Source of the DNA: Candidatus Harpocratesius repetitus | GTDB taxonomy: Archaea > Asgardarchaeota > Lokiarchaeia > Sigyniarchaeales > Promethearchaeaceae | DNA length: 32,000 bases | Assembly (NCBI GenBank): GCA_021498095.1 | Contig: JAIZWK010000001.1 | Location: 1,140,001-1,172,000 of the forward strand | Direction: 5' to 3' | Shown: in pieces, positions 1 to 13,673 of the stretch | Numbering within the stretch: the stretch's first letter is position 1 | Layout of the letters: each line of letters starts with the position of its first letter | Notes under the pieces: generated by a model | Databases searched by the model: none | What the model saw: the letters and a program-made list of their open reading frames with translations, nothing else | Told to the model about the DNA's origin: nothing | Translations under genes and position numbers: made by a program

Positions 1-562
1 TTCCCATAAAAATGTTATATCTATTTTCAGGTGAGTCGTTAATAAAAGCTAAGAAATCTTCAGCTGGAACAAAAACTAATTCATCATTTGCATCAATTCC
101 AACATTAGAATATGCTTCAAGAAGATCCTTCACATCTGCTCCAGACAATTTATCGAACTTTCGATTATCTGGATTATAAATATAAAAAGTTGTCCGACCT
201 GCTGGATGGATTTTTCTTCTTATTTTTACTTCTTCATTCCACAGATATTTCTTATTAAATTTGAGATTTTTTGAATGCAAGATACGTTGTTTCTCATCAA
301 TCCCTTGAGGATTTCGCAATGATATTTCAATTGTTGCTTCTTTTTCTTTATTTCTAAGATAATCAGTCAAACGTTCCATTCGAATTGTGCGAGATCTTAA
401 TCCAAATATTAATCGTAAAGCGTCTAAGAACAAGCTTTTTCCAGATCCATTTTTTCCTGTTAAAACTGTGATTCCATCGGGTAACGAAACTGAAACATTG
501 TCATATAGTAAGAAATTATCAATTTTTATATTTTTAATTAGTCCTAATGCATTTGTTACCAT
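1..562 (-). CDS. SMC-family (SMC/ClsN/SMC5-6/JetC-like) ATPase, N-terminal head; 3' part runs off the window start
   Basis: Not in the ORF track. Manual translation from ATG at 562: MVTNALGLIKNIKIDNFLLYDNVSVSLPDGITVLTGKNGSGKSLFLDALRLIFGLRSRTIRMERLTDYLRNKEKEATIEISLRN...NVGIDANDELVFVPAEDFLAFINDSPENRYNIFMG. It shows the I-x-I-x-NF start, Walker A GKNGSGKS (434-457), an R-loop-like RSRTIRMERLTDYL, and stays open to base 1. A purine-rich GGAAGGAAG lies upstream. Confidence 0.88.
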   Translation of the reverse strand, partial: MVTNALGLIKNIKIDNFLLYDNVSVSLPDGITVLTGKNGSGKSLFLDALRLIFGLRSRTIRMERLTDYLRNKEKEATIEISLRNPQGIDEKQRILHSKNLKFNKKYLWNEEVKIRRKIHPAGRTTFYIYNPDNRKFDKLSGADVKDLLEAYSNVGIDANDELVFVPAEDFLAFINDSPENRYNIFMG

Positions 563-641
563 TTATACTTCCTTCCTGTTTTTTTTTTGATTCTTTTCTT
601 AATTTATATTTGTTTTTATTTTATTGTTAATAGACAAAAAA

Positions 642-1625
642 CTAAGATTCACCTGATAAAACATCGTAATCAGCATTGAAGTTATAATTTTCTTTATTCT
701 CTGATTCAGAATCGATAGAAGAATCTTCTTTATTATTGATTTTTGAAATTGATTTTATTGCTTCCATTAAAATTTTGAGGGAGAATTCAATTTTTTCATG
801 TTTATCTTTTCTATTTGCATAACTTCGTAAAACTGCAATTTGAAAGACACGTTCGATATCAGCTCCAGTCATTGAAGTTGATGCCCTAAGTACTCCTGAT
901 TTATTTTCATCATCATTTAAATTAATATTCACATCAAAATTATCATTTTCACGCAATTTTTGAAGGAAATGTTCGATTAATTGAAAACGCATTTCATCAG
1001 ATGGAGGTGGGAAATCAATTTTAAATGTAAAACGCCTCCACACCGCTTTATCTAGTTGATTTGGATGATTTGTAGCTCCAATAATTCCCAAAGGAAGTTT
1101 TTTTTCTAAAACCAAATCCAATTCTTGTAAAAATGAAATTACCATCCTTTTGATTTCTCCGACATCGCTTTTATTTGCCCGTTCACTTGAAATAGCATCT
1201 ATTTCATCAAAGAAAAGAATAATCGGATTTTTTGTTCGAGCATACATTTCTGCTTGTCGTAAAAGATTTTTTACGCGATTAAGAGATTCTCCTAAAAGTG
1301 AACCAATCAAAGCATTCGAAAAAACAACAATAATTGGGATTTTGTATTCCTTTGCAAATGCTTTTGCTAAAGTGGTTTTTCCTGTTCCAGGAGGCCCAAC
1401 TAGTAATGCAGAAAAAATTATTGGAATAGGGAATTCAATAAAGGTTGAATCTTTTGAATAATCGTTTAACGCCTTAAAAAAAGAATTCAAATAGGTTTTT
1501 TGTTCATCTAAACCTAATAATTCGTCTTTTTTAATTTTAATATCATTTGGCATATATATTTCCCCAAACTGCCCTAAATATTGTTCTATTTTTGCTTTAA
1601 TGCTAGTATAATCTTCTGGTTTCAT
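642..1625 (-). CDS. Single-domain classical-clade AAA+ ATPase (327 aa)
   Basis: Walker A GPPGTGKT, Walker B ILFFDEID, sensor-1 IGATN, second region of homology LDKAVWRRF. Only a short N-terminal segment and an acidic C-terminal tail flank the ATPase module. Confidence 0.93.
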   Translation of the reverse strand: MKPEDYTSIKAKIEQYLGQFGEIYMPNDIKIKKDELLGLDEQKTYLNSFFKALNDYSKDSTFIEFPIPIIFSALLVGPPGTGKTTLAKAFAKEYKIPIIVVFSNALIGSLLGESLNRVKNLLRQAEMYARTKNPIILFFDEIDAISSERANKSDVGEIKRMVISFLQELDLVLEKKLPLGIIGATNHPNQLDKAVWRRFTFKIDFPPPSDEMRFQLIEHFLQKLRENDNFDVNINLNDDENKSGVLRASTSMTGADIERVFQIAVLRSYANRKDKHEKIEFSLKILMEAIKSISKINNKEDSSIDSESENKENYNFNADYDVLSGES

Positions 1626-1959
1626 TCTGATTTCTCTCTAATGCGTTGTTTCAAAGGATGATTTTAAACAAAAATCGAAAATGGTAAAGAAATAGAGTGT
1701 GATCGAACTCTTGAAATAAAAAATACACCATTTGATAAAAAATTTTCGCTAAGTTTAGAAAGAATGTATGGTATTGTGAGATGTAATAATAATAGACAAC
1801 CTTTTGCTTATAAAATGAAAAAATTTAAGAAGCTGGATAAGATCTCGAATATATTTTCATATTTACTAATTGACCTTAATATTTTTGCAGATTGATAATA
1901 ATATTTTAAAGTTTTTTTCCTAATGTCATCTTTGAAAAAAAAGAAAATTATTAATGAAA

Positions 1960-3645
1960 TTACAAATCGATTTCTTGAGCTAATTTGATAAGTAAATTAT
2001 TAATAATTTCGTTTTCGCTACCTATATATTCAAAAATGTCTCGTCCCTCTTTAAGTCCGCTTTTAACAACACTTTTTTTAAGATTTAGAAATATAGGATA
2101 AGATAATATTCGTTTCAAACGCGCGATCAATCTCATTTTAAGTTCCATTTGATTAAAAAATTTAAATAATTGGTTGTGCTCTATTAAAGAATCAAATTCT
2201 TCTATTGATTCTGAAGATAATCCTATAGTCATCGATTTTATTGCAAATATTTTATAAATAATATAGCTGAAAAAACCTGCGATTTTGTTTGTCAGACTAG
2301 TCGAAAGGTTGTCTTTTCTTTCAAAAGAGATTTTTGCCAAATATAATTGGTATAATGTTTCTGAGTTAAGTAGTGGTATATATTTAATACCATTTTTATC
2401 ATTAAGACTTTCATACATTAGTCCTTTTTCCTTTAATATAACAGCAAGTTGAGGACCTATAATATAAAAATCATAATCTTGATTTTCATATGGTTCATCT
2501 AATAAAGAATTTATTTCTTCAATTTCGTGTGGATTTTGATTTTCAATTAATTGTCCGGCAGGAATAAAACCAATTGCTTCAAGAATATAATTACTTCTTG
2601 CTCGAATACTTTTAGCAATATTTGAAATGAATATTTCATTAACTAAACGAAGAAATACTCCCGGATATTCGTTATTTCCAAAGTGAACAAATCGTGGATG
2701 AGTATTTAATGCTTGAGTTACACGTTCAAAGAATTCTCTCAAATTGTGGGTAATTATTGTTAGTTTTTTTGTGATTCTTGAATCATCTTGAGTATTAGGG
2801 CTGCTGATCATCTCAAGTTGAAGAGGAAAAAACTCTGATTCAAGTAATAATTTCTCAAAATTCTCTTTTTGTGAACCTAGATTTGGAAAAAGATGGTCTG
2901 TTAATTTTTTAACAATATCTGTTAATTTATGTTTATTGGATGAAGCTAATTCTGTACTTTCAAGAATGTGAATATAATAATCAAGAAATTTCAAAATTTC
3001 GCGAATATTGCGTAACTCTATATCATAATCAAAGTTTTGTTGATATAATTGAGAAATACAAACACGATAATATTCTTTTAAAAATAATCTCATGAATTCA
3101 GCACTTTTTGATATATGACCAACCCTGAAATTTTCAATATTTTTCTCAATGATCTTTAAATAATATGTATATAAACACTCATTGAAATATCCATTAATTG
3201 TATCTTTAATTTGGTTCTGTGTTAAATGAGAACTTGAAGTTCCTTGAATTAATTCTGAAATGTACATTTTTATGGAAACAAAAAATGAGTTTAAGGTTAT
3301 TTTTACATGTTCAGTTTGTAAAATTTTATCTGAATTAAGATTTTTTGATTGATATTCATTTTTTCTCTTCAAATTTATGTTTCGATCAAGTCGTAATAAT
3401 AAATTTTTTTGTAATTTTTCAATTTGTTCCAATGTAGCAGTAAAATTATCATTATTTGAATTTGTAGAACTAATGATTTGAACAATTTTTTTTCTAAGAT
3501 TTGGATTTACTTCGAGGATTAAAGTCAAGTCTCGCAAAAATGAATTGAATACTGATTTAATCATTTCAGGTATTTCAAGAAATCTATTAATATCATAAAA
3601 CCATCTATCATTATCATTTCTTCCATTATAATTTTGGCTTAGCAT
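1960..3645 (-). CDS. Uncharacterised helical protein (561 aa), candidate non-SMC subunit
   Basis: Long ORF with a GGAGG RBS at 3653-3657 and a 23-nt gap to the upstream gene. It has a coiled-coil-like segment (LEQIEKLQKNLLLRLDRN). No family motif recognised. Confidence 0.8.
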   Translation of the reverse strand: MLSQNYNGRNDNDRWFYDINRFLEIPEMIKSVFNSFLRDLTLILEVNPNLRKKIVQIISSTNSNNDNFTATLEQIEKLQKNLLLRLDRNINLKRKNEYQSKNLNSDKILQTEHVKITLNSFFVSIKMYISELIQGTSSSHLTQNQIKDTINGYFNECLYTYYLKIIEKNIENFRVGHISKSAEFMRLFLKEYYRVCISQLYQQNFDYDIELRNIREILKFLDYYIHILESTELASSNKHKLTDIVKKLTDHLFPNLGSQKENFEKLLLESEFFPLQLEMISSPNTQDDSRITKKLTIITHNLREFFERVTQALNTHPRFVHFGNNEYPGVFLRLVNEIFISNIAKSIRARSNYILEAIGFIPAGQLIENQNPHEIEEINSLLDEPYENQDYDFYIIGPQLAVILKEKGLMYESLNDKNGIKYIPLLNSETLYQLYLAKISFERKDNLSTSLTNKIAGFFSYIIYKIFAIKSMTIGLSSESIEEFDSLIEHNQLFKFFNQMELKMRLIARLKRILSYPIFLNLKKSVVKSGLKEGRDIFEYIGSENEIINNLLIKLAQEIDL

Positions 3646-3652
3646 TTATATT

Positions 3653-3657
3653 CCTCC
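3653..3657 (-). promoter_or_regulatory. Shine-Dalgarno motif GGAGG for the 561-aa ORF
   Basis: The minus strand reads GGAGGAATATAAATG, so GGAGG ends 7 nt before the ATG at 3645. Confidence 0.7.
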
Positions 3658-3668
3658 ATACTGTTTTA

Positions 3669-4940
3669 CTAAGATTCTTTCTCAACTCCAGCAGTAAGAT
3701 CTGCTAAAAGATTTTCCACATCTACTAAGATTGGTATGTTAATTCTTATTTTTTCACCCAATTTCCATTGATTTACAGATGGAATTCGAGTTGCTAGTTG
3801 TTTTAATAACTTTCGAATATTAATTTCATCTGCTGGATTAATTACACTTTTCTTTTCTTGATTCTCTATTTGAGAATCTATCTCAGCAGAAATATATTTC
3901 ATCCAAGCAGGTCCTCCAACCACATATGATACACATTTAACCAAAGGTATTGCATAAATTTCGATTATTTCATCAAATACCCATGATTTTGGAATAATTT
4001 GCATAGTAGAATCAAAACCTTGATTTTCCATAAGTTCACGATTATTTCCATAACGCTCAAATGGTTCTGTTATGGAAACTTGGGATGCTAACAAGAATAA
4101 TAACGCAATTTGTGTTGTTATACCGATAATCAAATTTTTATTTAGACGCTCTCTTTCATAAGAGCAAAAATGAGCTAGAATTATCGCCGAAAATAAATTA
4201 ATATCAAATATAACATCATTTTCAAATTCATATCTCCCCTCGTCATTTTTATAAAGAATATTATATGCTTTTAATAACTCCATTATATCAGATGGAAATT
4301 GATAATATATTTTCGTTATTCTATTTCCCGTTTTTGGATCTATCTCAGATTTCTTAATTTCTTGTAGATGTAAATATTTAATCAATCTTTGTACTTTGTT
4401 ATCCAGTTTTGTTGCTGAACTCTGAAATAAATTCTGAAGAGTGGATTCAGACACAACTAAATACTTCGAAGATTTAAAAGCTAAGATAATTTTACTAAGA
4501 AGTTGCTCTTCTTCTTGTTTCATAACAGCTTTTGTAGAAGGTGAAACTAAAAAAAGAATAAATTCTCGAATAGTTGCTCTTTGAATTCGAAGTAAGCGAA
4601 TATTATTGGAAAAATCATCAATTAAAAAAAGGGATTCAATTAGGTGTTTAATTGTTGAAATAAAGTCTTCTTTTAAAGGAAAAAACCGATCAGCTAAAGT
4701 TTCAATGATTTTAATAAAACCTTGACCATTCTGATTTAAAAGAGCAGGAAGTGTTGTGTCCCAAAATCTCAATTCAACATTATTTACATTGTTCGGTCTG
4801 AGTGGCGAAGTATTTATAAAATAATTATTTGATTTTAGTTTTTCTAGCACTTTTTGAGAAGCTTGATTTAAGTTTTGAAGTAATTCATTCCATTCTTGTG
4901 TTGTAAAAATATCTTTAAAATTAATGCCCATATTAATCAC
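3669..4940 (-). CDS. Uncharacterised protein (423 aa) with a winged-helix-like segment
   Basis: The GTG start overlaps the upstream stop (GTGA); an alternative ATG lies at 4931. The segment LLSKIILAFKSSKYLVVSESTLQNLF...KVQRLIKYLHLQEIKKSEIDPKTGNRITKIYYQFP reads like helix-helix-helix-wing. Confidence 0.78.
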   Translation of the reverse strand: MINMGINFKDIFTTQEWNELLQNLNQASQKVLEKLKSNNYFINTSPLRPNNVNNVELRFWDTTLPALLNQNGQGFIKIIETLADRFFPLKEDFISTIKHLIESLFLIDDFSNNIRLLRIQRATIREFILFLVSPSTKAVMKQEEEQLLSKIILAFKSSKYLVVSESTLQNLFQSSATKLDNKVQRLIKYLHLQEIKKSEIDPKTGNRITKIYYQFPSDIMELLKAYNILYKNDEGRYEFENDVIFDINLFSAIILAHFCSYERERLNKNLIIGITTQIALLFLLASQVSITEPFERYGNNRELMENQGFDSTMQIIPKSWVFDEIIEIYAIPLVKCVSYVVGGPAWMKYISAEIDSQIENQEKKSVINPADEINIRKLLKQLATRIPSVNQWKLGEKIRINIPILVDVENLLADLTAGVEKES

Positions 4941-6136
4941 TCTTCTGATGTTTCTGAATCGCTAAAATCTTCATTCGATTCTGATCTATTTTTTTTAAGT
5001 AATCGTTCTAAGGAAAATTGATGATAAACAATTTCGATTTTATTTAAATCCAATTCTTTATAAATTTCTTTGTTTGTTATGTATTCTCCCAATAGATCTC
5101 TTGTAAGTTTTAAATAATTTCTTGGACCATTTACTCCTAATTGATTCACAAAGTCTGTAAATTCTTTCTTAGAATTATCAGAAAAATATGCTTGATATTC
5201 TCTTTCGGCTTTTTCTTTTATTTTCTTAAATTCCCAGTTCAATTTTAGAATTTTATCTAAAGCTAATATATATTCTTGATGATTATCGGAATAAGTATCA
5301 GAAGAGATTAATTCAACCAAATCTTCATTAAAATCATCGTTATTATCAATAATATATTGGATTATATTTTCGTTTCTTTTTTCTTTTAAAATTGATTTTA
5401 CAATTCCATCCACTTTACGAGAGTTTTCGAAATAATAGGGAAAAATCTTTACTAACAGATTTTTAATGGAATTTAAATACTCATCGATATAATCTTTTAT
5501 TTTATGAATATTATATTCTGCGAAGAATAGTGGTTCAAGAATTAAATTCATTTCACGAATTACTTCAAAAGTTTCTTTAGGAAAAAGTAGAAGATCATCT
5601 CCATCAATATTGTGGATATTTAAAATATTATGTATTACTGGATATTTCCTGCACCGGACATTTTCTAGTTCAAATGTTTGCTGTTTTATTAATAATTTTT
5701 TTCTTTTCCATTCTTTGAAAAAAGAACCTAAAGCATTAGCAAGATCTTCAGGATAATAATAATATCTTAGGAGGTTATTATTTCCATCTTTAAAAAACAT
5801 GAACAAATTCCGAAGATATTTTAAACTTTTGGAATCTAAGTATATATCTAATGATTCTTTTTTATTATCCGCAAAAAGATGATATTTCCATAAAATTTCT
5901 AAAATTGGGCGATCTATTAAAATTAATTCATCAGATTGATCCGTTTTTTCAAGTTCATAAATATCTATCAAATTACTGATTATTTTCTTTCGATCTTTTA
6001 AATTGTTTACCTGGTCAAAAAGTTCATCATGGATTAAAAAAAGATAGCTGAGCAATTGTCGCTTTTGTTCTGAATTTAAAAGATTTTTTATCAAAGTTGC
6101 ATCAATTATAGGATCTAAAGTATTGTGTGGTTGCAT
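4937..6136 (-). CDS. Uncharacterised helical protein (399 aa) with an acidic C-terminal tail
   Basis: Long ORF and first gene of the cluster. Its stop overlaps the next start by 4 nt. No family motif recognised. Confidence 0.78.
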   Translation of the reverse strand: MQPHNTLDPIIDATLIKNLLNSEQKRQLLSYLFLIHDELFDQVNNLKDRKKIISNLIDIYELEKTDQSDELILIDRPILEILWKYHLFADNKKESLDIYLDSKSLKYLRNLFMFFKDGNNNLLRYYYYPEDLANALGSFFKEWKRKKLLIKQQTFELENVRCRKYPVIHNILNIHNIDGDDLLLFPKETFEVIREMNLILEPLFFAEYNIHKIKDYIDEYLNSIKNLLVKIFPYYFENSRKVDGIVKSILKEKRNENIIQYIIDNNDDFNEDLVELISSDTYSDNHQEYILALDKILKLNWEFKKIKEKAEREYQAYFSDNSKKEFTDFVNQLGVNGPRNYLKLTRDLLGEYITNKEIYKELDLNKIEIVYHQFSLERLLKKNRSESNEDFSDSETSEE

Positions 6137-6658
6137 TTAAATCACAAATTTTTCAATTATTAATTAATTTTTAAATAACAATTATTTAAAAGATAGTTGT
6201 ATTGATTTCTGGAAGAAGCTTCTAAAAATTGGTTAGCATTTGATATTTGAATACTAGATGAATTAACTAAGCTAGTAATATTCAAAATTAATGATCTCAT
6301 AAAAATTTTTCGTTTTTCTAAAATCTGCAGAAATCCCAATTTATTATTTGTTTATCGTCGAATTCTTATACAATAGAAAAATTGAAAATAAAAACATAAA
6401 AAAAAGTATAATCAATAAAAGATAACATCTAAATGACTTTTACACCTTCATGGGAGAAAAATTCATAAATATATGGGCAATATTCATGATTATTTTCACA
6501 ATCTTGTAATTTAATCTTGTATCCTTTATGTATTATATTTAGTAATAATTATTTGCCAATCTTTTGAAATTTGATCATCTCTTTGTAATTCTATGCTTTT
6601 TTTGTTTGTACAAGCTTTTTAGGAGAAAAATAGTATATTCTTATTTCACCCAGAAAAG

Positions 6659-6847
6659 ATGAAGAATTTCACCAAGAATGTTTTGAATGAATGCTCTTTA
6701 CTTATTGAATACAAGTATTTAGAAATACATGAACAAGAAGGAATAAAAAAAGTGCTTATTACACCAATAGGAAAAGCAGTTTGTAAAGATATTGTTAATA
6801 AGGTTGATTTGCATGAAATTCTTTCATTTTTAGAAAAAAAAGAATAA
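6659..6847 (+). CDS. Small protein (62 aa), possible winged-helix fragment
   Basis: YLEIHEQEGIKKVLITPIGKAV resembles the wing ('iT..G') of wHTH proteins. It is short and the start is uncertain. Confidence 0.35.
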   Translation: MKNFTKNVLNECSLLIEYKYLEIHEQEGIKKVLITPIGKAVCKDIVNKVDLHEILSFLEKKE

Positions 6848-6867
6848 CAATATAGATCTTTTGAAAT

Positions 6868-8031
6868 TTATAGGCAATGTACTCCTTCAGAAGGCGTTGA
6901 TTCATAAATTACAGCACGATAGCCAAATATTTCTTCATATTCTCCTAGTTTTTTCTTATATTCGCTTAATGCTTCATCTGTGAATAAACCAATCGTACAC
7001 CCTCCAAATCCTGCTCCGATCATACGGGATCCCAGGCAGCCTTTTATTGAGATGGCAGTTTCAACCAACCAATCAAGTTCCTTGCAACTTACTTCATAAT
7101 CGTCCCTTAAACTTGCATGAGATTCATTTAAAAGTTTTCCAAATGATTCAAAATCATTGGAAGTGAGGAATTCTTTTGCTTTTTTCACTCTTTCATTTTC
7201 CAAAATGACATGTCTTGCTCGTTTTTTGATATTTTCTGGAATTAATGCCTTCATTTTTTCAAGATCTTCTAATGAGAAATCTCTTAATGATTTTTTCTGA
7301 TCTGATGAATTAAGTATTTTTACTGCCTCAGCACATTCATTAACACGTTCATTGTATTTTGATTGACTTAATTTATGAAGCACATTTGAATTCGTAATAA
7401 TCAAATGGTAAGGTGCAAAATTGCATGGAATTAATTCATATTTGAGTGAGCGACAATCCAAAAACATGCATGTGTTTTTTTGAGCTAAAAGTGAAATATA
7501 TTGATCCATGATTCCACATTGAACTTCTACAACTTCATGTTCTGCTTGTTGGCAAACTTTTGCAAGTTCTGTATTTGAAATGTTAAGTGAATATAGTTCT
7601 TTTATCGCAAATGCAACCGCAACTTCTAATGCTGCTGAAGAAGATAATCCAACTCCTTGAGGAATATTCCCAGCGAAGGTGATTCGAATTCCACCAATAT
7701 TATATCCTTTTTTATGTAAAATTTTTGCAACTCCCATTGGATAATTAAACCAATTATCTTTACTTCTTCCAAAATCACTATAAAGTGCAACCATTTTTTG
7801 ATCGAAATCAATAGAAAATACTGCAATTACTGAAGAGTCTGGAATTTTTGAGACAGCAACAGTTATTCCCATATCAATGGCCATTGGTAATACAAAACCT
7901 TCGGAATAATCTGTATGTTCTCCAATCAAATTTATTCTTCCAGGAGCAAAAACAATAATTTCTGGATCGCAACCAAATATTTCTTGATGTTTTTTTCTTA
8001 CTATTTCTGTTTCCATATATCTTTTCCCCAC
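6868..8031 (-). CDS. galK: Galactokinase (GHMP kinase family)
   Basis: APGRINLIGEHTDYSEG galactokinase signature, PQGVGLSSSAALEV GHMP ATP-binding loop, CGIMDQ, and GSRMIGAGFGGC. The real start may be the ATG at 8016. Confidence 0.95.
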   Translation of the reverse strand: MGKRYMETEIVRKKHQEIFGCDPEIIVFAPGRINLIGEHTDYSEGFVLPMAIDMGITVAVSKIPDSSVIAVFSIDFDQKMVALYSDFGRSKDNWFNYPMGVAKILHKKGYNIGGIRITFAGNIPQGVGLSSSAALEVAVAFAIKELYSLNISNTELAKVCQQAEHEVVEVQCGIMDQYISLLAQKNTCMFLDCRSLKYELIPCNFAPYHLIITNSNVLHKLSQSKYNERVNECAEAVKILNSSDQKKSLRDFSLEDLEKMKALIPENIKKRARHVILENERVKKAKEFLTSNDFESFGKLLNESHASLRDDYEVSCKELDWLVETAISIKGCLGSRMIGAGFGGCTIGLFTDEALSEYKKKLGEYEEIFGYRAVIYESTPSEGVHCL

Positions 8032-8135
8032 ATAATCTTTATTTTAAATGATTAAATAGTTTTCTTCTTTAAATATTGTAGGAAAATTAGATTTAACTAA
8101 AAAGAGAAAGAATAAAAAAGAAATTGAGCTAGAAT

Positions 8136-8570
8136 TTAATGATTCATATCAGCAACAAATGAATCAAATACTTTTTGAATGCGATCGGCTGTTGGTCCTC
8201 GACCTTCTACACCTTTTTCTGTAATAATTACTTTTCCACCTAGGATACTAATTGAATTATCATCACTTATTTTAATTGTCTCTCCTGGTAATACTTTTCG
8301 TAAACGTGCTGCCAATTCTTCCATTGGAAATGGTTCTCCTTCAATTGTAAAAGAAACCCACTTATTTCCATGAATAAAAATTGTTCCTAGTTTTCTTTTC
8401 TTTTCATTTCGAGCGTTTTCAAGACAAATCGTATGCGTCATATCAATTCCTATTAACCTTCCAGTGTAAAAATGGGCTGGGTATTCATGTTCAAGAATTA
8501 CTTTAACCATTGATTGCAAGGCATTAGCGATTTGTTTATTGAATTCCCGCGCTGCCGTTGAACTGCTCAT
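8136..8570 (-). CDS. Sm-like archaeal protein 3 (SmAP3): Sm fold plus C-terminal Lsm-C domain
   Basis: Sm1/Sm2-like YTGRLIGID...ICLENA...IFIHG, followed by a C-terminal domain ending KVIITEKGVEGRGPTADRIQKVF as in crenarchaeal SmAP3. Confidence 0.85.
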   Translation of the reverse strand: MSSSTAAREFNKQIANALQSMVKVILEHEYPAHFYTGRLIGIDMTHTICLENARNEKKRKLGTIFIHGNKWVSFTIEGEPFPMEELAARLRKVLPGETIKISDDNSISILGGKVIITEKGVEGRGPTADRIQKVFDSFVADMNH

Positions 8571-8663
8571 AGATTATTCTAAGTCAAACTAAATGAAAAA
8601 CTTTTTGATTCTCCAATTCCTATAATTTTACGCATTACGCATTAGAGATGGAGTTATTTTTCA

Positions 8664-10715
8664 GTGAAAATAGAAAATTCAAGCGATTCGAGTTCAAAAT
8701 TAGATCTTGACTATGTAGTTATCCCAAAGACACACTCATCCATGTATTTAATGCATAAATATTGGGCTCGTAAGCCAGCAAATATTGTTAGCGAGTATAT
8801 TAATCGTTATACCAAACCTGGAGAAATAGTACTCGATCCATTCATGGGTTCAGGGGTAACTATCCTTGAAGCTGTGTTTAGTAATCGTAGAGCAATTGGA
8901 ATTGATATCAACCCTATTTCTTCTTTTATTTGCAAGAATACAGGAGTTCCTATTAATTTGGAGTTGTTAAAAGAAGGATTTTTTTTTCTTGAAAAATTAA
9001 TTCAACAACCATCTTCTCTTTATTCAGAACTTTATCATTTGCCCTGTCCATTTTGTCATCAATCTGCTGAAATAACTCATTTAATTTGGAAAAGTACCTT
9101 AAAAAAAATGTCTAATTCGTCAATTCCATTTGAGAGATTTATTGATAAGCTAATTGAGATTCGATTTTTTTGTTCAACTTGCGGCTCTTTGAAATTGAAA
9201 CCAAAAGATGAATTCTTTTCTCAATATGCTCTTTTTATCTCCAATTTAGAACACTCATTATCTGAAAAAATTAAAAAAAATAAGGAATTTCAAAAATTGA
9301 GTGAATTATTCTTAAATTTTAAATTTCAGTATCAAAATCAAATAAACTTTCTTCAATTACGTCATTCTCTTCGACAGAATCCAGAATTATCTAGTTTATT
9401 TTCAATGCGTGCTCTTCTATTTCTCGCTTGGCTCCGTGATAGAATTGAAAAATTACCAGTAAAATTCAATTCAATAAAAAAAATTCTATTATTTACTCTT
9501 ACAGCTGCAGTAGCTCAAGCTAGTAAAATGGTTTGGGTAATTGATAAACGTAATGGTAAAAATCTCTCAAATATGCAAGTTGGTTCATGGACCCATCATT
9601 TTTTTTGGAATCCTAGTAAATATTTTGAAGTGAATGCATGGAATTGTTTTAAAACCCGTTTTACAAAAATTCTTCGTGGAAAACAAGAATCAAATCAACG
9701 GAATAATAATTGTGAAGTTCCATTTAATTTAGCTCCAAATTTAGAATTGTTCTCCAAAGATACTAGTTATAGTGCGATCTTAATTAACCGTTCCATAATA
9801 CATCTTGATCTTCCAAAAAACTCCGTTGACTTCATTTTTACAGATCCACCTTATGGAGATTCCATTCAGTATGGTGAATTGAGTTCACTATGGGTAAAAT
9901 GGATCGGTTTGGATATGGAACAATATATTTCAATGATTCAAAAAGAAGAAATTGTGATTAATTCCAAACAGCAGAAAAATTTACAATTTTATCAATCCAA
10001 ATTATGTAAAGCTTTCAAGATTCTATATCAAGTTTTAAAACCAGGTAAGTTTATGGTTATTACTTTTCATAACACTTCAATGGCTATTCGTAATGCTTTA
10101 ATCACCTCCGTTTTGGATGCAGGATTTGAATTAAGACAGATTTTGTTTCAACTTCCACCCAGAGTATCAATAAAATCTATGCTTCATCACAGTGGAACTC
10201 CCATTGGTGATTATTATATAAGATTTCAAAAATTAGTATCAAAATCCTTCCATCCATATCTTCAAAAATATAAGGAAACAATAAATAATACTTCATACTC
10301 TGAAAAAAAGGAGATAGTTAAGCAAATAATAGTTAGTATTTTACAAAAAAGGGGCGAACCTACCTTTTTTATTTGGATAATGAATTTAATTGACGAATTC
10401 CTCTATCAAAAATTTTTATTTCCATTATCAAATTTTGATGATATTATTAAGAATTTAAGTAAGGATTCCGATTTTGTTATAACAAAAGATCAAAAGTGGT
10501 GGTTATCCAATCCCATTCATCTTTCAAAAGCAGATTCTCCTTTAATCAATCGAATAGCAGAATTTTTACAATATTTAATTGAAAATGAGAAAAAACCATC
10601 TTCATCAGAAAGTATCAAGCAATTTTATTTTAATAAAATATATGAAAGATTTCGCGGTGTCCTCACGCCCGATAAATATATAATTAATTCTCTTATTCAA
10701 CAAAATACTAAATAA
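8664..10715 (+). CDS. Amino (N6-A/N4-C) DNA methyltransferase with inserted Zn ribbon, archaeal type
   Basis: HKYWARKP N-terminal motif, motif I VLDPFMGSG, CPFC...CSTC cysteine pairs, motif IV FTDPPY, and LKPGKFMVITFH. Confidence 0.88.
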   Translation: MKIENSSDSSSKLDLDYVVIPKTHSSMYLMHKYWARKPANIVSEYINRYTKPGEIVLDPFMGSGVTILEAVFSNRRAIGIDINPISSFICKNTGVPINLELLKEGFFFLEKLIQQPSSLYSELYHLPCPFCHQSAEITHLIWKSTLKKMSNSSIPFERFIDKLIEIRFFCSTCGSLKLKPKDEFFSQYALFISNLEHSLSEKIKKNKEFQKLSELFLNFKFQYQNQINFLQLRHSLRQNPELSSLFSMRALLFLAWLRDRIEKLPVKFNSIKKILLFTLTAAVAQASKMVWVIDKRNGKNLSNMQVGSWTHHFFWNPSKYFEVNAWNCFKTRFTKILRGKQESNQRNNNCEVPFNLAPNLELFSKDTSYSAILINRSIIHLDLPKNSVDFIFTDPPYGDSIQYGELSSLWVKWIGLDMEQYISMIQKEEIVINSKQQKNLQFYQSKLCKAFKILYQVLKPGKFMVITFHNTSMAIRNALITSVLDAGFELRQILFQLPPRVSIKSMLHHSGTPIGDYYIRFQKLVSKSFHPYLQKYKETINNTSYSEKKEIVKQIIVSILQKRGEPTFFIWIMNLIDEFLYQKFLFPLSNFDDIIKNLSKDSDFVITKDQKWWLSNPIHLSKADSPLINRIAEFLQYLIENEKKPSSSESIKQFYFNKIYERFRGVLTPDKYIINSLIQQNTK

Positions 10716-10789
10716 AGAGAGATTATCAGTGATCATTATATTATTATATCCCAACAAATAAAGAAGATGGTTACTTATATATTTTTGAA

Positions 10790-11806
10790 ATGGTTAAGTG
10801 TGACGTTCCCGATTGCGATGAAATTTTGGATTATTTACCTTTTAAATGTAGATATTGTGGAGGAACATTCTGCAAGAAACACCGCCTCCCCGAAAATCAC
10901 AACTGTTCTTTTAAAATGACTGATAAACCAGAAGCTTCTTATGTTTCGTCTTCAATTTCAAGTCAAAAAAAGACACATAATATGAATGAAGTTGAGACTC
11001 CCTTTGAATTTGATGAAAGTCAGTTAGATCGAGAGATGAGGGATTATATTAGAAATCAGGAACGTTCTTCCATGCCTCCTCCTCCAACACGTGATTCTCG
11101 AAGAGTACGTAGTTTTTCCAGACCCCTATTTGGTGTTTCTCAAAGTACCAAAGGAACTTATTGGTTAATGGGATTAAATGGTGTTTTTTCTCTTATTGCT
11201 TTATTTATTAAAATTCTTACATCAAATGGGGAATACCTATTATTAAATTTTAAAACTCTTTTTGGTAATTTTTGGATTTGGAGTATTTTCACATCAATGT
11301 TCACAACTATGAGCATTTTTTCTTTGTTATTTGTAATGATCATCTTGTATGGCACAGGAAGGATGCTAGAAAAACAATTTGGTACCCGCTTTATTCTCTA
11401 TCTTTATATTGGATGTGGTCTTTTTGGAATAGTTGGAGGAATTCTTTTTCAATTGATATTTTCTTTTATCCCTTTATTATCACCAACTGTTTCACAAGCA
11501 TTTCAACTAAGTTTCTTCTCAGTTCAATGGGCTGCATTAATTGGAATGATCAGTTTTATTCTATACTTAGCAGGATTAAATAGGGAAATGCGCATGTATT
11601 TATATTTTATTCCTGTTAAAATGAAAGGAAAGTATCTTTTATATTTTCTAATTGGAATGAATCTGCTAATAATAATTATTGGATTCTTTAATCCATCCTT
11701 TTCTAGATCTGCTATTGAATCATTTGCCCAAATTTCTTCTTTGGGCGGTGGATATTATTTTTATAAAAAATTTGGAAGCCAATTTGCTATTTCCAGATTT
11801 ATTTAA
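10790..11806 (+). CDS. AN1-type zinc finger fused to a rhomboid-fold membrane domain lacking the catalytic dyad
   Basis: N-terminal CDVPDC...[22 protein letters not shown] (AN1) and a Pro/Arg-rich linker. About six TM segments follow, including [10 protein letters not shown]...[13 protein letters not shown] and LYFIPVKMK, which are typical of rhomboid/Derlin folds. Confidence 0.82.
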
Positions 11807-12272
11807 TTTTTTCAATTAATTTTAATTATAAGAGCTTTTATCAACATTTGATAGATTAATAAAAAAATAAAAATCCTGCATAATTTACGCATTTATCAAT
11901 ATTCCATCCTAATTTGAAATTTGTCGATCAGAAATTTAGAACTTTTTTTATCAAGTTCAACTATAATTTGATTAAAAATAGTCAAAAATCGACCCATAAT
12001 TATATTTTCTAAAGTTCATTTTTGCCGACTGAAATAATTCTTGGATAGAATTAATTATTGTCGGAAAACTAAAGATGAAAATGGTAATTCAGTCAAAAAT
12101 AAAGATGCTACTAGAACCTCATAAATAATGAGAATTTTAAAAATTCACTGATGAAATTTAATTAAATTGTGTCTAAAGTAAAAAGGATAGCAAAAGCAAA
12201 TATTTCTGATGTTTTATCATTGAAATTGTCACGTTCTAGCACAAATTTTTTTACGAAGAAAAGAATTTGTAA

Positions 12273-13673
12273 GTGTTAATGAAAAATGCTTTTCTTCTCA
12301 TTCCAGAAATTAAAGGTAAAATTATTTTATCTCAAAATGAAGTAAATCATATTGGTAAACGAGAAATTGTTAATTGCGCAACAGCTCCAATTAATCCTAA
12401 AGAATTTTCCACACTTTCTTCTGTTCATCAAGATCAATTTGGAGAGGTAATAAAAGAACAATTTAATATCCGATTTGATTCTGATTCTAATCAATATCTT
12501 ATTGAAGACAGAAATTCAACAAATGGCACATATCTTGGGAATATTAATTTGAAGCAAACTCCCGCTCAGATTTTAAAAAATGGAGATGAAATTATCGTTC
12601 CTATTGAAAAGAATGGGAAATTAATGCAATTGAAAATACTTTTTCAAGAATCAACAGGGAACCAGATTATTAAAGATAAAAATCTTACTGTTTCTCCTGA
12701 AGAAAATATTGATTCACTCTCAAATCTCCCCAATCAACCAATACAACCTAAAAAGAATAATAAAAACTTTGTATCACCGACAGGTGGAGAATATTTCGAT
12801 CCTACCTTTACACCAACAGTTAATCCACCAACAATGATCAACCAGTCAAAAAAATCACAGAATAATGCTCTTGTATCTTACCAAGGTTATGATCCTGCTG
12901 ATACATCTGCGAGTTTTATACTCGTTCGACAGAAATTACAAATTCCTAAAAATTGTTTTGAACCACAAGTGGCTCAAAACCTCGGTTTAGATTTTTCTAT
13001 GATTTTTAAATTAGAATGGGCGGAAATTTGGCATATTTCAGTTGCTTTTCTCCTATTATTTGTGATGATATACCACACATACGTTAATGTTCTCGGAATT
13101 ATTTCTCTTATATATTTTGTTCAATATGGGGTTGGTTTGACTATATCTGATGTTTTTCTCACACCCTTACCGACTGCTCTCGTTTTTTGTATTACCTTTA
13201 TTTGTCATGAACTAGGTCATCTTTATACTGGTAAAGAATTGCAATTTCCTTCACGATTCTGTCTTGTAAAGAAAGGTGTTCGATTAACTTTAATTTCAGC
13301 AATTGTAGGAATTCCATTCGGTCTTCCTGGTGCGTCAATTTCAGTGGGAGTAGATCCTCAAACTGATCGGAATAAAATGGGTGCAATTAAAATGGCAGGT
13401 CCGACTGTAAATCTCGTAATTGGCTTGATTAGCACAATTATTGTTGTTATAATTCCTTCATCATCAACAATGCTAAAAACTATTTTTCTTCAAAGTGCAG
13501 GCATCAATTTTATGTTAGGTGGATTTAATATGATTCCAAAAGAATTTCAAGGATTTGCAATGGACGGAAATTACATTATATCCTGGCGAAAATCTCTATA
13601 TTTTTTCTTGGTATCCGCTTTTATTCTCGGGTATGCAGGAGTAATTGTGTTGGCCAGTACGGTCATCATTTAG
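12273..13673 (+). CDS. FHA domain fused to an M50 (site-2 protease) intramembrane metalloprotease
   Basis: FHA motifs IGKR, SSVH and EDRNSTNGT, then a Pro/Asn-rich linker. The TM region carries HELGH, AGPTVN and FNMIP...MDG (third Zn ligand). Confidence 0.85.
   Translation: MLMKNAFLLIPEIKGKIILSQNEVNHIGKREIVNCATAPINPKEFSTLSSVHQDQFGEVIKEQFNIRFDSDSNQYLIEDRNSTNGTYLGNINLKQTPAQILKNGDEIIVPIEKNGKLMQLKILFQESTGNQIIKDKNLTVSPEENIDSLSNLPNQPIQPKKNNKNFVSPTGGEYFDPTFTPTVNPPTMINQSKKSQNNALVSYQGYDPADTSASFILVRQKLQIPKNCFEPQVAQNLGLDFSMIFKLEWAEIWHISVAFLLLFVMIYHTYVNVLGIISLIYFVQYGVGLTISDVFLTPLPTALVFCITFICHELGHLYTGKELQFPSRFCLVKKGVRLTLISAIVGIPFGLPGASISVGVDPQTDRNKMGAIKMAGPTVNLVIGLISTIIVVIIPSSSTMLKTIFLQSAGINFMLGGFNMIPKEFQGFAMDGNYIISWRKSLYFFLVSAFILGYAGVIVLASTVII

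Follow-up and report, generated by a model that had tools for sequence, protein, structure and literature searches.

The five genes at the start of the window, by which is meant the whole 32,000-nucleotide stretch of DNA that was analysed (positions 1140001-1172000 of contig C1 of genome G000, which consists of a single contig of 4.36 Mb), make up the upstream two-thirds of a cluster of eight genes. The order of the cluster is A-B-C-AAA+-SMC-F-G-H, in which the AAA+ gene is D and the SMC gene is E, and it is adjoined by a Zn-ribbon gene, Z. It appears to correspond to an operon widespread among Lokiarchaea, here called the standard operon, but with a working SMC in the place that is taken there by a coiled-coil protein devoid of ATPase motifs. 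G000 is assigned to the family that contains Promethearchaeum syntrophicum MK-D1, and the earlier note's attribution of the DNA to an Asgard archaeon therefore holds. The features are the following.

4937-6136, minus strand: gene A, ORF of 399 aa, orphan, helical
3669-4940, minus strand: gene B, ORF of 423 aa with a GTG start
1960-3645, minus strand: gene C, ORF of 561 aa
1734-1748, minus strand: BRE/TATA-like motif, CGAAAA followed by a T-rich TATA-like stretch
642-1625, minus strand: gene D, ORF of a 327-aa AAA+ ATPase
1-562 (ORF 2-562), minus strand: N-terminal head of gene E, 187 aa, open-ended past the window start
to G000:C1:1137389, beyond the window start, minus strand: full extent of gene E, 1057 aa
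G000:C1:1136355-1137323, outside the window, minus strand: gene F, 322 aa
G000:C1:1135394-1136335, outside the window, minus strand: gene G, 313 aa
G000:C1:1134823-1135353, outside the window, minus strand: gene H, 176 aa
G000:C1:1133482-1134459, outside the window, plus strand: Zn-ribbon gene Z

The five minus-strand ORFs of the window, with the gaps and overlaps reported for them earlier, all agree with the ORF coordinates. A and B have 4 nt in common (GTGA), an overlap that would be abolished if translation of B began at residue 4, an alternative ATG 9 nt further downstream. Between B and C lie 23 nt, in which GGAGG precedes the ATG of C by seven bases, and the AAA+ and SMC genes are separated by 79 nt (563-641). 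The gap between C and the AAA+ gene is 334 nt long (1626-1959) and contains, some 110 nt ahead of the start of the AAA+ gene, the BRE/TATA-like motif. The motif block is conserved in the C-to-AAA+ gaps of three genomes (G000, G013 and L071) and is, judged by its sequence, a candidate internal promoter of AAA+-SMC-F-G-H, which lends support to the suggestion of the earlier note that the gap divides two transcription units.

The SMC gene was recovered complete from the genome. Its product of 1057 aa has the five-domain layout of SMC proteins, with head segments at residues 1-200 and 901-1057, charged arms at 201-450 and 651-900, and a globular centre, the hinge; no CxxC hook was found in it. The head matches Pfam SMC_N at 1.9e-14 and the full-length protein matches TIGR02169 at 1e-31. 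Its best sequence matches in the PDB are Smc5 (5.3e-9) and Smc6 (3.5e-8), both above Smc, Smc1A and Rad50. E is thus identified, by sequence search, as a complete ATPase of the SMC family and of its SMC5/6-related archaeal type. As the single SMC gene of the cluster, E presumably forms a homodimer. The host genome also encodes a canonical Smc. A profile of the E family matches SMCs of about 1000 aa in seven other Asgard families with 140-400 bits.

The probable partners of E are encoded downstream of it. G matches Pfam Nse4_C at E 1.3e-3, below the Pfam cut-off, a match made by two of the four members of its family. A model of the E-G complex scored 0.61, versus 0.33 for the best control, and reached the mark of the method, which is attained by 58 of 80 solved complexes and by 2 of 110 mismatched pairs; the runs agreed in at least 63% of the contacts, with a partner pLDDT of at least 62. 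In the model, the N-terminal helices of G (residues 41-91) lie on the neck helices of the SMC (189-222 and 876-908) and the C-terminal part (residues 230-311) on the head cap. The alignments behind the model were custom-made and shallow (4-5 rows), and the pairing, a textbook one, may have passed because it is like solved complexes. On these grounds G looks like the kleisin of E and is taken as a candidate for it. Three winged-helix-like stretches make F a triple winged-helix protein. H is a member of the s170 family, to which the last gene of the standard operon also belongs (hhalign 96.4%, E 1.3e-9; 2.3e-12 for the H protein of L076). It has weak matches, at about 1e-4, to the genes that close SMC operons in other Asgard families and is likely a winged-helix KITE. 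With F, G and H downstream of E, there is no need for A, B and C to act as kleisin or KITE, roles that the earlier note had considered for them, and that idea is not supported; moreover, the families of A, B and C also occur in about 130 genomes without an ATPase-bearing SMC.

None of A, B and C has a match in Pfam, and A has none in PADLOC or NCBIfam either. Profile comparison assigns A, as a divergent member, to the s383 family, which is encoded by the first gene of the standard operon (DSAG12_00345 in MK-D1; hhalign probability 98.2%, E 2.9e-14, 314 columns); its orthologues are 38% identical in G013 and 30% in L071. B consists of a helical N-terminal part, a winged helix at about 138-226 and a helical/beta C-terminal part, and is a divergent homologue (24-27% identity) of the gene of about 380 aa in the standard operon (DSAG12_00347). 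Its profile matched only 40 clusters among 1.84 billion representatives, and its AlphaFold model (pLDDT 71.7, pTM 0.76) retrieved only generic winged-helix matches in a structural search (Z about 7). Residues 174-560 of C are homologous (21-23% identity) to the gene of about 415 aa (DSAG12_00348), relative to which C carries a 170-aa N-terminal extension that forms a helical bundle. The model of C (pLDDT 76.8, pTM 0.75) has no match in the PDB, but residues 155-560 match the AFDB model A0A5C9F0P1 (E 1.2e-15, TM 0.54/0.70), as, more weakly, does the model of B (E 7e-5, TM 0.40). The two models also resemble each other, and B and C may share a fold.

The AAA+ protein D matches Pfam AAA (PF00004) at 8.9e-30, and its best solved relatives are NVL, Afg2, Rix7 and p97. 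It is a single-domain classical AAA+ with an N-terminal domain that is almost absent. It retains intact Walker A and Walker B motifs, an intact sensor 1 and intact Arg fingers, and the aromatic position of pore loop 1 is mostly Leu. That D is catalytically intact is well supported by these motifs.

The standard operon, likewise of eight genes, is present in 12/13 and 117/135 genomes of two Lokiarchaeal families. In MK-D1 it comprises DSAG12_00345-00352, all annotated as hypothetical except the AAA ATPase. Sequence comparison gives good support for A, B, C, D and H as divergent counterparts of its genes, D being 35-43% identical to its AAA+. The Zn-ribbon gene, the gene order and the chromosomal neighbourhood are also shared: the genes that flank the G000 cluster are orthologous (50-71% identity) to those that flank the standard operon, which places the SMC version at the same chromosomal site. 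The two differ in the centre, where the standard operon has s350 and s540, the coiled-coil protein without Walker A, and G000 has E, F and G. The E family matches s540 with 95% and E 4e-8, carried mostly by the coiled coil, and the heads alone give no significant match (E 0.04). In the single contig of G000 no copy of the standard operon and no s350, s540 or s170 was found.

The genes follow the order (A)-B-C-AAA+-SMC in seven independent contigs whose SMC proteins are down to about 25% identical, which shows a conserved unit rather than a chance neighbourhood, the part of the earlier note's proposal that stands. The linkage recurs in G013, L071/L072, L073, L075, L076 and L077. In a rooted AAA+ tree, D and the AAA+ of the standard operon form one clade (100/100), inside which the standard sequences are a nested group next to the SMC-linked L075 (85/97); the SMC-linked forms are monophyletic in only 16% of the bootstrap trees. 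The tree suggests, through that one 85/97 node with its long branches, an ancestral form with a working SMC, from which the operon without ATPase motifs was derived.

It might be argued that two independent neighbours merely share an ancestral locus, namely a self-sufficient AAA+-SMC-F-G-H unit and an unrelated A-B-C (plus Z) operon. The 334-nt gap with its conserved promoter-like motif is consistent with this reading, and in G263 and G307 the AAA+ gene directly precedes an E-family SMC with no A-B-C alongside; G263 holds a complete standard operon elsewhere in the genome. A-B-C may thus be separable, and the SMC and standard forms are not strictly exclusive. In addition, first-look HMMs found no A, B or C near the related SMCs of about 1000 aa in other Asgard families. 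However, the corresponding spacing in the standard operon is only about 20 nt and its gene order recurs unchanged in 24 loci and about 130 genomes, B-C-AAA+ precedes a working SMC in seven of the nine loci with readable upstream sequence, and the AAA+ proteins of both forms belong to one clade. Two unrelated systems are therefore considered unlikely.

In the model that best explains the data, to which we give about an even chance of being right, the AAA+ and its adaptors act on the SMC ring. E, G and H, probably with F, would make up a ring that entraps DNA or forms loops in it, with the cell's own chromosome as its substrate. A, B and C would be the adaptors that direct an AAA+ hexamer, which would remodel the ring, for example in loading, unloading or recycling, via the kleisin or winged-helix subunits. 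The cluster would probably be read as two units, A-B-C and AAA+-SMC-F-G-H. The tie of A, B, C and the AAA+ to the ring is one that we infer from gene order.

SMC5/6-related SMC-kleisin-kite operons have been described in TACK and Asgard archaea (bioRxiv 10.1101/2024.01.07.573240; Yoshinaga and Inagaki 2021, PMC8665677), and extra copies of Asgard SMC complexes were already noted by van Hooff et al. (bioRxiv 10.1101/2024.01.07.573240), who do not mention an AAA+ ATPase. With these operons the G000 cluster shares an SMC gene followed by those of an Nse4-like kleisin and small winged-helix partner(s), and Smc5 and Smc6 as best solved relatives. It differs in the active AAA+ upstream, the orphans A, B and C, the triple winged-helix protein F, and the loss of the Q-loop Gln in most E-family members. 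In the literature no paper was found that describes an active AAA+ beside an archaeal SMC operon.

The eukaryotic Smc5/6 holo-complex consists of Smc5, Smc6, the Nse4 kleisin, the Nse1/Nse3 KITEs and the Nse5/Nse6 loader (PDB 7QCD, 7YLM); no AAA+ subunit is known from it. E resembles it in its best solved matches and its His-less switch, and the weak Nse4_C match of G and the winged-helix partners are further likenesses. The G000 cluster has a single SMC gene and lacks RING or SUMO-ligase parts. Regulation of the ring in Smc5/6 involves additional helical subunits of low conservation, Nse5/6 (PMC8327961), and A, B and C have no detectable similarity to them.

A further related system is IetAS, a pair of an AAA+ ATPase (IetA) and a subtilisin-like protease (IetS), and the earlier note offered an anti-plasmid or anti-virus machine as one possible function. 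On that reading the cluster would be a mobile SMC system like Wadjet (JetABCD) or Lamassu (LmuB plus an effector), which also cluster an SMC-family ATPase with accessory genes, and sensor or effector roles would fall to the IetA-like AAA+ and to A, B and C. D matches the PADLOC IetA models at 2.7e-56 (189.6 bits), the N-terminus of E matches the mad3, LmuB and JetC models, and the close E subfamily is patchy, being present in 3/148 genomes of the two Lokiarchaeal families and absent from the congeners of G000. Eukaryotic Smc5/6 is known to restrict extrachromosomal DNA (PMC9458440). Yet D reaches only 163 bits with the NCBIfam IteA model, whose equivalog cut-off is 510, and no protease gene was found in the cluster. 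The matches to JetC and LmuB are weak, short and of the generic ABC-ATPase head type, and PADLOC gives no match whatever for A, B, C, F, G or H, the last three of which do not match JetA or JetB. None of the eight proteins has a nuclease, protease or other effector domain in Pfam or PADLOC, such as a JetD-like Toprim nuclease or an LmuA-type effector. Furthermore, the locus is chromosomal, syntenic and vertically conserved, at the place of a near-universal operon with orthologous flanks. With no nuclease and no defence family matched as a whole, the cluster is read as chromosomal rather than anti-plasmid, and the defence proposal, which thus finds no specific support, is judged distinctly unlikely.

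The motifs of E argue for a working ATPase. Walker A, Walker B (IDEFD) and the His-less switch (PQFILVAPD) are present, the signature motif reads HSSGQ where LSGGE/Q is usual, and the Q-loop Gln is replaced by Ala in four of the five E-family members, so that the ATPase may be weak or unusually regulated. That E is decaying, or a regulatory protein poor in ATPase activity, on its way to the motif-less state of s540, a static scaffold with the AAA+ as the sole motor, would fit these substitutions and the existence of the Walker-A-less protein in the standard operon but is very improbable, given that Walker A, Walker B and the D-loop do not vary among family members only 23-47% identical, which speaks for selection on nucleotide binding and hydrolysis, and that the most divergent member retains the Q-loop Gln.

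The five minus-strand open reading frames at the start of the window lie exactly where the earlier note had placed them, as the ORF listing confirmed, and the spacing described there (a GTGA overlap, a 23-nt gap with GGAGG, a 334-nt gap and a 79-nt gap) was recovered in the sequence. The source genome, Candidatus Harpocratesius repetitus (G000), is a single contig of 4.36 Mb, and the part of the cluster beyond the window was read from the same contig. The genes are:

2-562, minus strand: SMC head, an open-ended ORF of 187 aa; Pfam SMC/RecF/RecN head (SMC_N), 1.9e-14
642-1625, minus strand: AAA+ gene D, 327 aa; Pfam classical AAA domain, 8.9e-30
1960-3645, minus strand: gene C, 561 aa (ORF listing)
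3669-4940, minus strand: gene B, 423 aa (ORF listing)
4937-6136, minus strand: gene A, 399 aa (ORF listing)
past the window start, minus strand: the complete SMC gene E, 1057 aa (read from the genome)
after E, same strand: F (322 aa), G (313 aa) and H (176 aa) (read from the genome)
next after H, opposite strand: Zn-ribbon gene, 325 aa (read from the genome)

The A/B start-stop overlap is real or absent depending on the start chosen for B, which was called from GTG (window 4929-4940, minus strand); an ATG in the same frame follows 9 nt further on, at residue 4. An Rfam search of window positions 1-7000 gave no match.

Sequence composition divides E into two head portions (residues 1-200 and 901-1057) and charged arms (201-450 and 651-900) that flank a globular region (451-650). 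The arms are rich in E, K and Q and poor in Pro and Gly, and the whole protein contains one Cys and no CxxC hook, consistent with an SMC protein that has two long coiled-coil arms and a globular hinge and lacks the zinc hook of Rad50. Pfam SMC_N and AAA_23 both match E. The motifs GKNGSGKS (Walker A), IDEFD (Walker B) and GLD (D-loop) are invariant or nearly so in five E-family members and indicate a split ABC-type head, with Walker A in the N-terminal part and Walker B and the D-loop in the C-terminal part. In the PDB ranking Smc5 (5.3e-9) and Smc6 (3.5e-8) came first, followed by Smc (4.4e-7), with Smc1A and Rad50 also lower. Rad50 was ruled out by the missing zinc hook and the higher rank of Smc5/6, and a housekeeping Smc was ruled out because the canonical Smc of this genome (828 bits, above the TIGR02169 cut-off) is located elsewhere, at C1:1712182. 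Besides E, the genome contains three further SMC-family genes (1206 aa, ~1490 aa and 1188 aa), and each is followed by small genes of its own. They lie outside the window, at these contig coordinates:

G000:C1:1237557-1243949: 475-aa gene, 1188-aa SMC, then 268-aa and 186-aa genes
G000:C1:569140-575777: 1487-aa SMC with 366-aa and 331-aa genes
G000:C1:1712176-1716392: canonical Smc of 1206 aa with a 196-aa gene

Altogether, four SMC-type loci are present in one archaeon.

A word-based homologue search yielded five relatives of E. A later genome profile search uncovered a wider class of ~1000-aa proteins, after which the label 'extremely rare' for the E family was dropped. The E profile matches ~1000-aa SMCs from seven other Asgard families with 140-400 bits, within SMC-kleisin-kite-like operons, and the last genes of two such operons weakly match H and s170, a gene family of the standard operon described below (E ~1e-4). 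By these profile matches, E would fall into the published 'SMC5/6-related' class of archaeal SMCs.

The genes that follow E encode candidate ring partners. G matches Pfam Nse4_C with an E value of 1.3e-3 and 19.3 bits, below the cut-off of 26, in two of four family members, and its profile had no match among PDB sequences. For the SMC head and neck (residues 1-235 plus 855-1057) paired with G, complex prediction gave a score of 0.61, the best control 0.33; because the pairing is textbook, this pass may mirror likeness to solved complexes and not binding. Of 80 solved complexes 58 came up to the score mark, as did 2 of 110 mismatched pairs. Contact agreement between runs was at least 63% and the pLDDT of the partner at least 62. 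Residues 41-91 of G were modelled on the neck helices (189-222 and 876-908) and residues 230-311 on the head cap; the predicted topology is that of a kleisin, with N-terminal helices on the neck and the C-terminal part on the cap. F has three winged-helix-like stretches, and its profile found nothing among PDB sequences beyond weak wHTH regulators. H alone matched neither Pfam nor PDB sequences; hhalign grouped it with s170 (probability 96.4%, E 1.3e-9; 2.3e-12 for the H protein of metagenome contig L076). E, G, H and probably F would form an SMC5/6-related ring that acts on the cell's own DNA.

In the AAA+ protein D, GPPGTGKT, FFDEID, GATNH and WRRF are conserved across 15 aligned members. 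D thus has the Walker A, Walker B and sensor 1 motifs of the classical AAA+ clade, as well as its second region of homology with the Arg fingers. Pore loop 1 mostly has Leu at its aromatic position, with Tyr or Phe in three members. The closest PDB relatives are NVL, Afg2, Rix7 and p97, at ~1e-38 to 1e-40. D would act as a remodeller of the ring, and A, B and C would help to target it.

Pfam, PADLOC and NCBIfam gave no match for A, B or C. B and C were modelled with AlphaFold (pLDDT 72 and pTM 0.76 for B; pLDDT 77 and pTM 0.75 for C), and neither model had a global match in PDB, AFDB clusters or Atlas, bar one unnamed 421-aa AFDB entry (A0A5C9F0P1), to which C has a clear resemblance (E 1.2e-15, TM 0.54/0.70) and B a weak one (E 7e-5, TM 0.40). 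Because both match this one entry, B and C may share a fold. Foldseek searches of both models against PDB gave none at E <= 0.001, the Atlas shape search reached TM <= 0.27 at best, and ESM Atlas feature searches, run with A, with B and with the protein homologous to A in MK-D1, gave no usable match. The VIA-align wide search returned generic winged-helix matches alone for the B model (Z ~7) and helical-bundle matches alone for the C model, with Z up to 9.7 on its N-terminal extension. Residues 138-226 of B, its winged helix, resemble Nse3 (7qcd_E, Z 6.6) and ScpA C-WHD (4i99_C, Z 5.7), matches that do not exceed those to dozens of unrelated winged-helix proteins (Z 6-7); this predicted generic winged helix is the one recognisable element of the B and C models. 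Searching 1.84 billion representatives with a profile assigned only 40 clusters to the B family. The earlier note had read the three orphans as divergent non-SMC subunits, to be compared with kleisins and KITEs. Kleisin and KITE roles for them are unsupported, and they are unneeded because the candidate kleisin G and the winged-helix protein F lie downstream of E.

With the B profile, homologues of ~380 aa turned up in two families that belong to one and the same order (12 of 13 genomes in one, 117 of 135 in the other), and none in the other families searched with it. In 24 loci they are part of a fixed eight-gene operon, the standard operon of Lokiarchaeia, with the order s383 (~370 aa), Zn-ribbon (~320 aa), B' (~380 aa), C' (~420 aa), AAA+ (~360 aa), s350, s540 and s170. 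In MK-D1 (Promethearchaeum syntrophicum) it comprises DSAG12_00345-00352, annotated as 'hypothetical' except for the AAA ATPase. Profile comparison relates A to s383 (probability 98.2%, E 2.9e-14); B is 24-27% identical to B', residues 174-560 of C are 21-23% identical to C', and D is 35-43% identical to the standard-operon AAA+. For F and G no counterpart was detected in the standard operon, and hhalign of both against s350 was not significant. The s540 genes, taken from L036, L037 and 22 other loci, encode a coiled-coil protein without Walker A. hhalign matched s540 (LTTpEK; e.g. L037:14263-15891) to the C-terminal arm and signature region of the SMC family (HSSGQK) at 95% probability, a full-length match that is not counted as homology because it is mostly coiled coil; comparisons of the SMC head or hinge with s350 and s540 were not significant. 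That s540 might be a degenerate SMC is an idea.

Both sides of the cluster in G000 are orthologous (50-71% identity) to the flanks that the standard operon has in MK-D1 and its relatives, which marks the locus as conserved in position. On one side is the Zn-ribbon gene; beyond A are three genes that are 50-63% identical to the corresponding flanks in MK-D1 and the 6.0-Mb relative G010:

6868-8031, minus strand: 387 aa, orthologue of a standard-operon flank gene
8136-8570, minus strand: 144 aa, orthologue of a standard-operon flank gene
8664-10715, plus strand: 683 aa, orthologue of a standard-operon flank gene

In G000 each of A, B, C, F, G and H occurs only once, and s350, s540 and s170 are missing. 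Since the flanks are orthologous and the standard genes are absent, the SMC version takes the place that the standard operon has elsewhere, but inverted.

The SMC version recurs. In G013, which belongs to another genus, the same seven genes occur in the same order on a contig of 10,990 bases. B-C-AAA+-SMC was found in the metagenome contigs L071/L072, L073, L075, L076 and L077, followed by F, G and H as far as each contig reaches. The genomes G263 and G307 have AAA+-SMC without adjoining A-B-C; in G263 (locus L079, G263:C11:13000-32999) the genes at 7223-13559, minus strand, encode an AAA+ protein of 326 aa, an SMC of 1015 aa, F and two small proteins. G263, from the sister family, also has the standard operon in full on a different contig (C32), so that the two forms can coexist. 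An AAA+ tree was rooted on seven further AAA domains from G000. The AAA+ proteins of the operons form one clade in it (100/100), in which the standard clade stands beside the SMC-linked L075 (85/97); the SMC-linked forms were monophyletic in only 16% of the bootstrap trees. This topology suggests, without proving, that the arrangement with a working SMC is the older one.

That the genes form a single functional system, an SMC5/6-related ring coupled to an AAA+ remodeller, is the likeliest reading and has in our judgement about an even chance of being right. It is gene order that suggests contact between the ring half and the half made up of the AAA+ protein and A, B and C. The C-to-AAA+ gap contains a BRE/TATA-like block, conserved in three genomes, that suggests an internal promoter. 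Two separable units sharing one locus are, on balance, unlikely.

The earlier note had also considered an anti-plasmid or anti-virus machine. D is IetA-like (2.7e-56 and 189.6 bits with the PADLOC IetA models, under the NCBIfam cut-off), but no product of a neighbouring gene has a protease domain, and so the IetS serine protease that would make an IetAS system is lacking. The JetD Toprim nuclease of Wadjet (JetABCD) and its JetA and JetB partners were not matched in the cluster, and the JetC model matches the SMC at 41.5 bits only, on the Walker A region. PADLOC likewise gave no match for F, G and H. With effector and mobile context absent, a defence system is distinctly improbable.

The Q-loop Gln together with the LSGG(E/Q) signature of the SMC family is not found in the five E-family members: four have Ala in place of the Gln, in FVPAE(D/E), L074 alone retaining Q, and HSSGQ takes the place of the signature, with LSAGQ in the case of L074; the switch region of E is PQFILVAPD, without His. 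Judged from the sequence, the Q-loop and signature deviation is a motif detail that leaves the architecture unaffected, and an ATPase-poor scaffold is very improbable.

Asgard SMC5/6-related complexes are proposed ancestors of eukaryotic Smc5/6, and how Nse5/6 loads and regulates Smc5/6 is so far little understood. If such a ring is genetically coupled, in a conserved way, to an active Cdc48-like AAA+ protein and three orphan partners, this would point to a new control of SMC rings. Tentatively, and with considerable doubt, the coupled ring can be taken further: A, B, C and the AAA+ protein might be a dedicated machine that uses ATP to load, unload or recycle an SMC5/6-type ring in these archaeal relatives of eukaryotes. 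The ring would then be the first SMC complex with its own AAA+ remodeller, and the locus might retain, with its working SMC, the ancestral form of an operon in which almost all Lokiarchaeia have a coiled-coil protein lacking ATPase motifs. The partner genes here accompany an SMC with ATPase motifs and a candidate kleisin, and the locus provides a readable anchor for the widespread orphan standard operon, which is present also in the cultured MK-D1.

The SMC-kleisin-kite part of the cluster is of a published kind (10.1101/2024.01.07.573240; PMC8665677). The literature search found no paper with the MK-D1 locus tags of the standard operon and none in which an AAA+ ATPase accompanies an SMC operon of archaea. 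New with respect to the literature searched are the motif-bearing SMC and candidate kleisin at the standard locus and the recurrent adjacency of AAA+ and SMC genes.

Some details concern single contigs. In L075 (4439-8038, plus strand) the SMC is represented by two ORFs separated by 24 nt, one of 506 aa that contains the N-terminal head and one of 684 aa; the split could be real, a frameshift or an assembly error. P0087 of L078 is doubtful as a B-family member, its match being marginal and an AAA+ neighbour absent. In L077 a Prok-JAB (JAMM deubiquitinase-like) gene (1111-1560, plus strand) lies two genes upstream of B-C-AAA+-SMC, a single occurrence.
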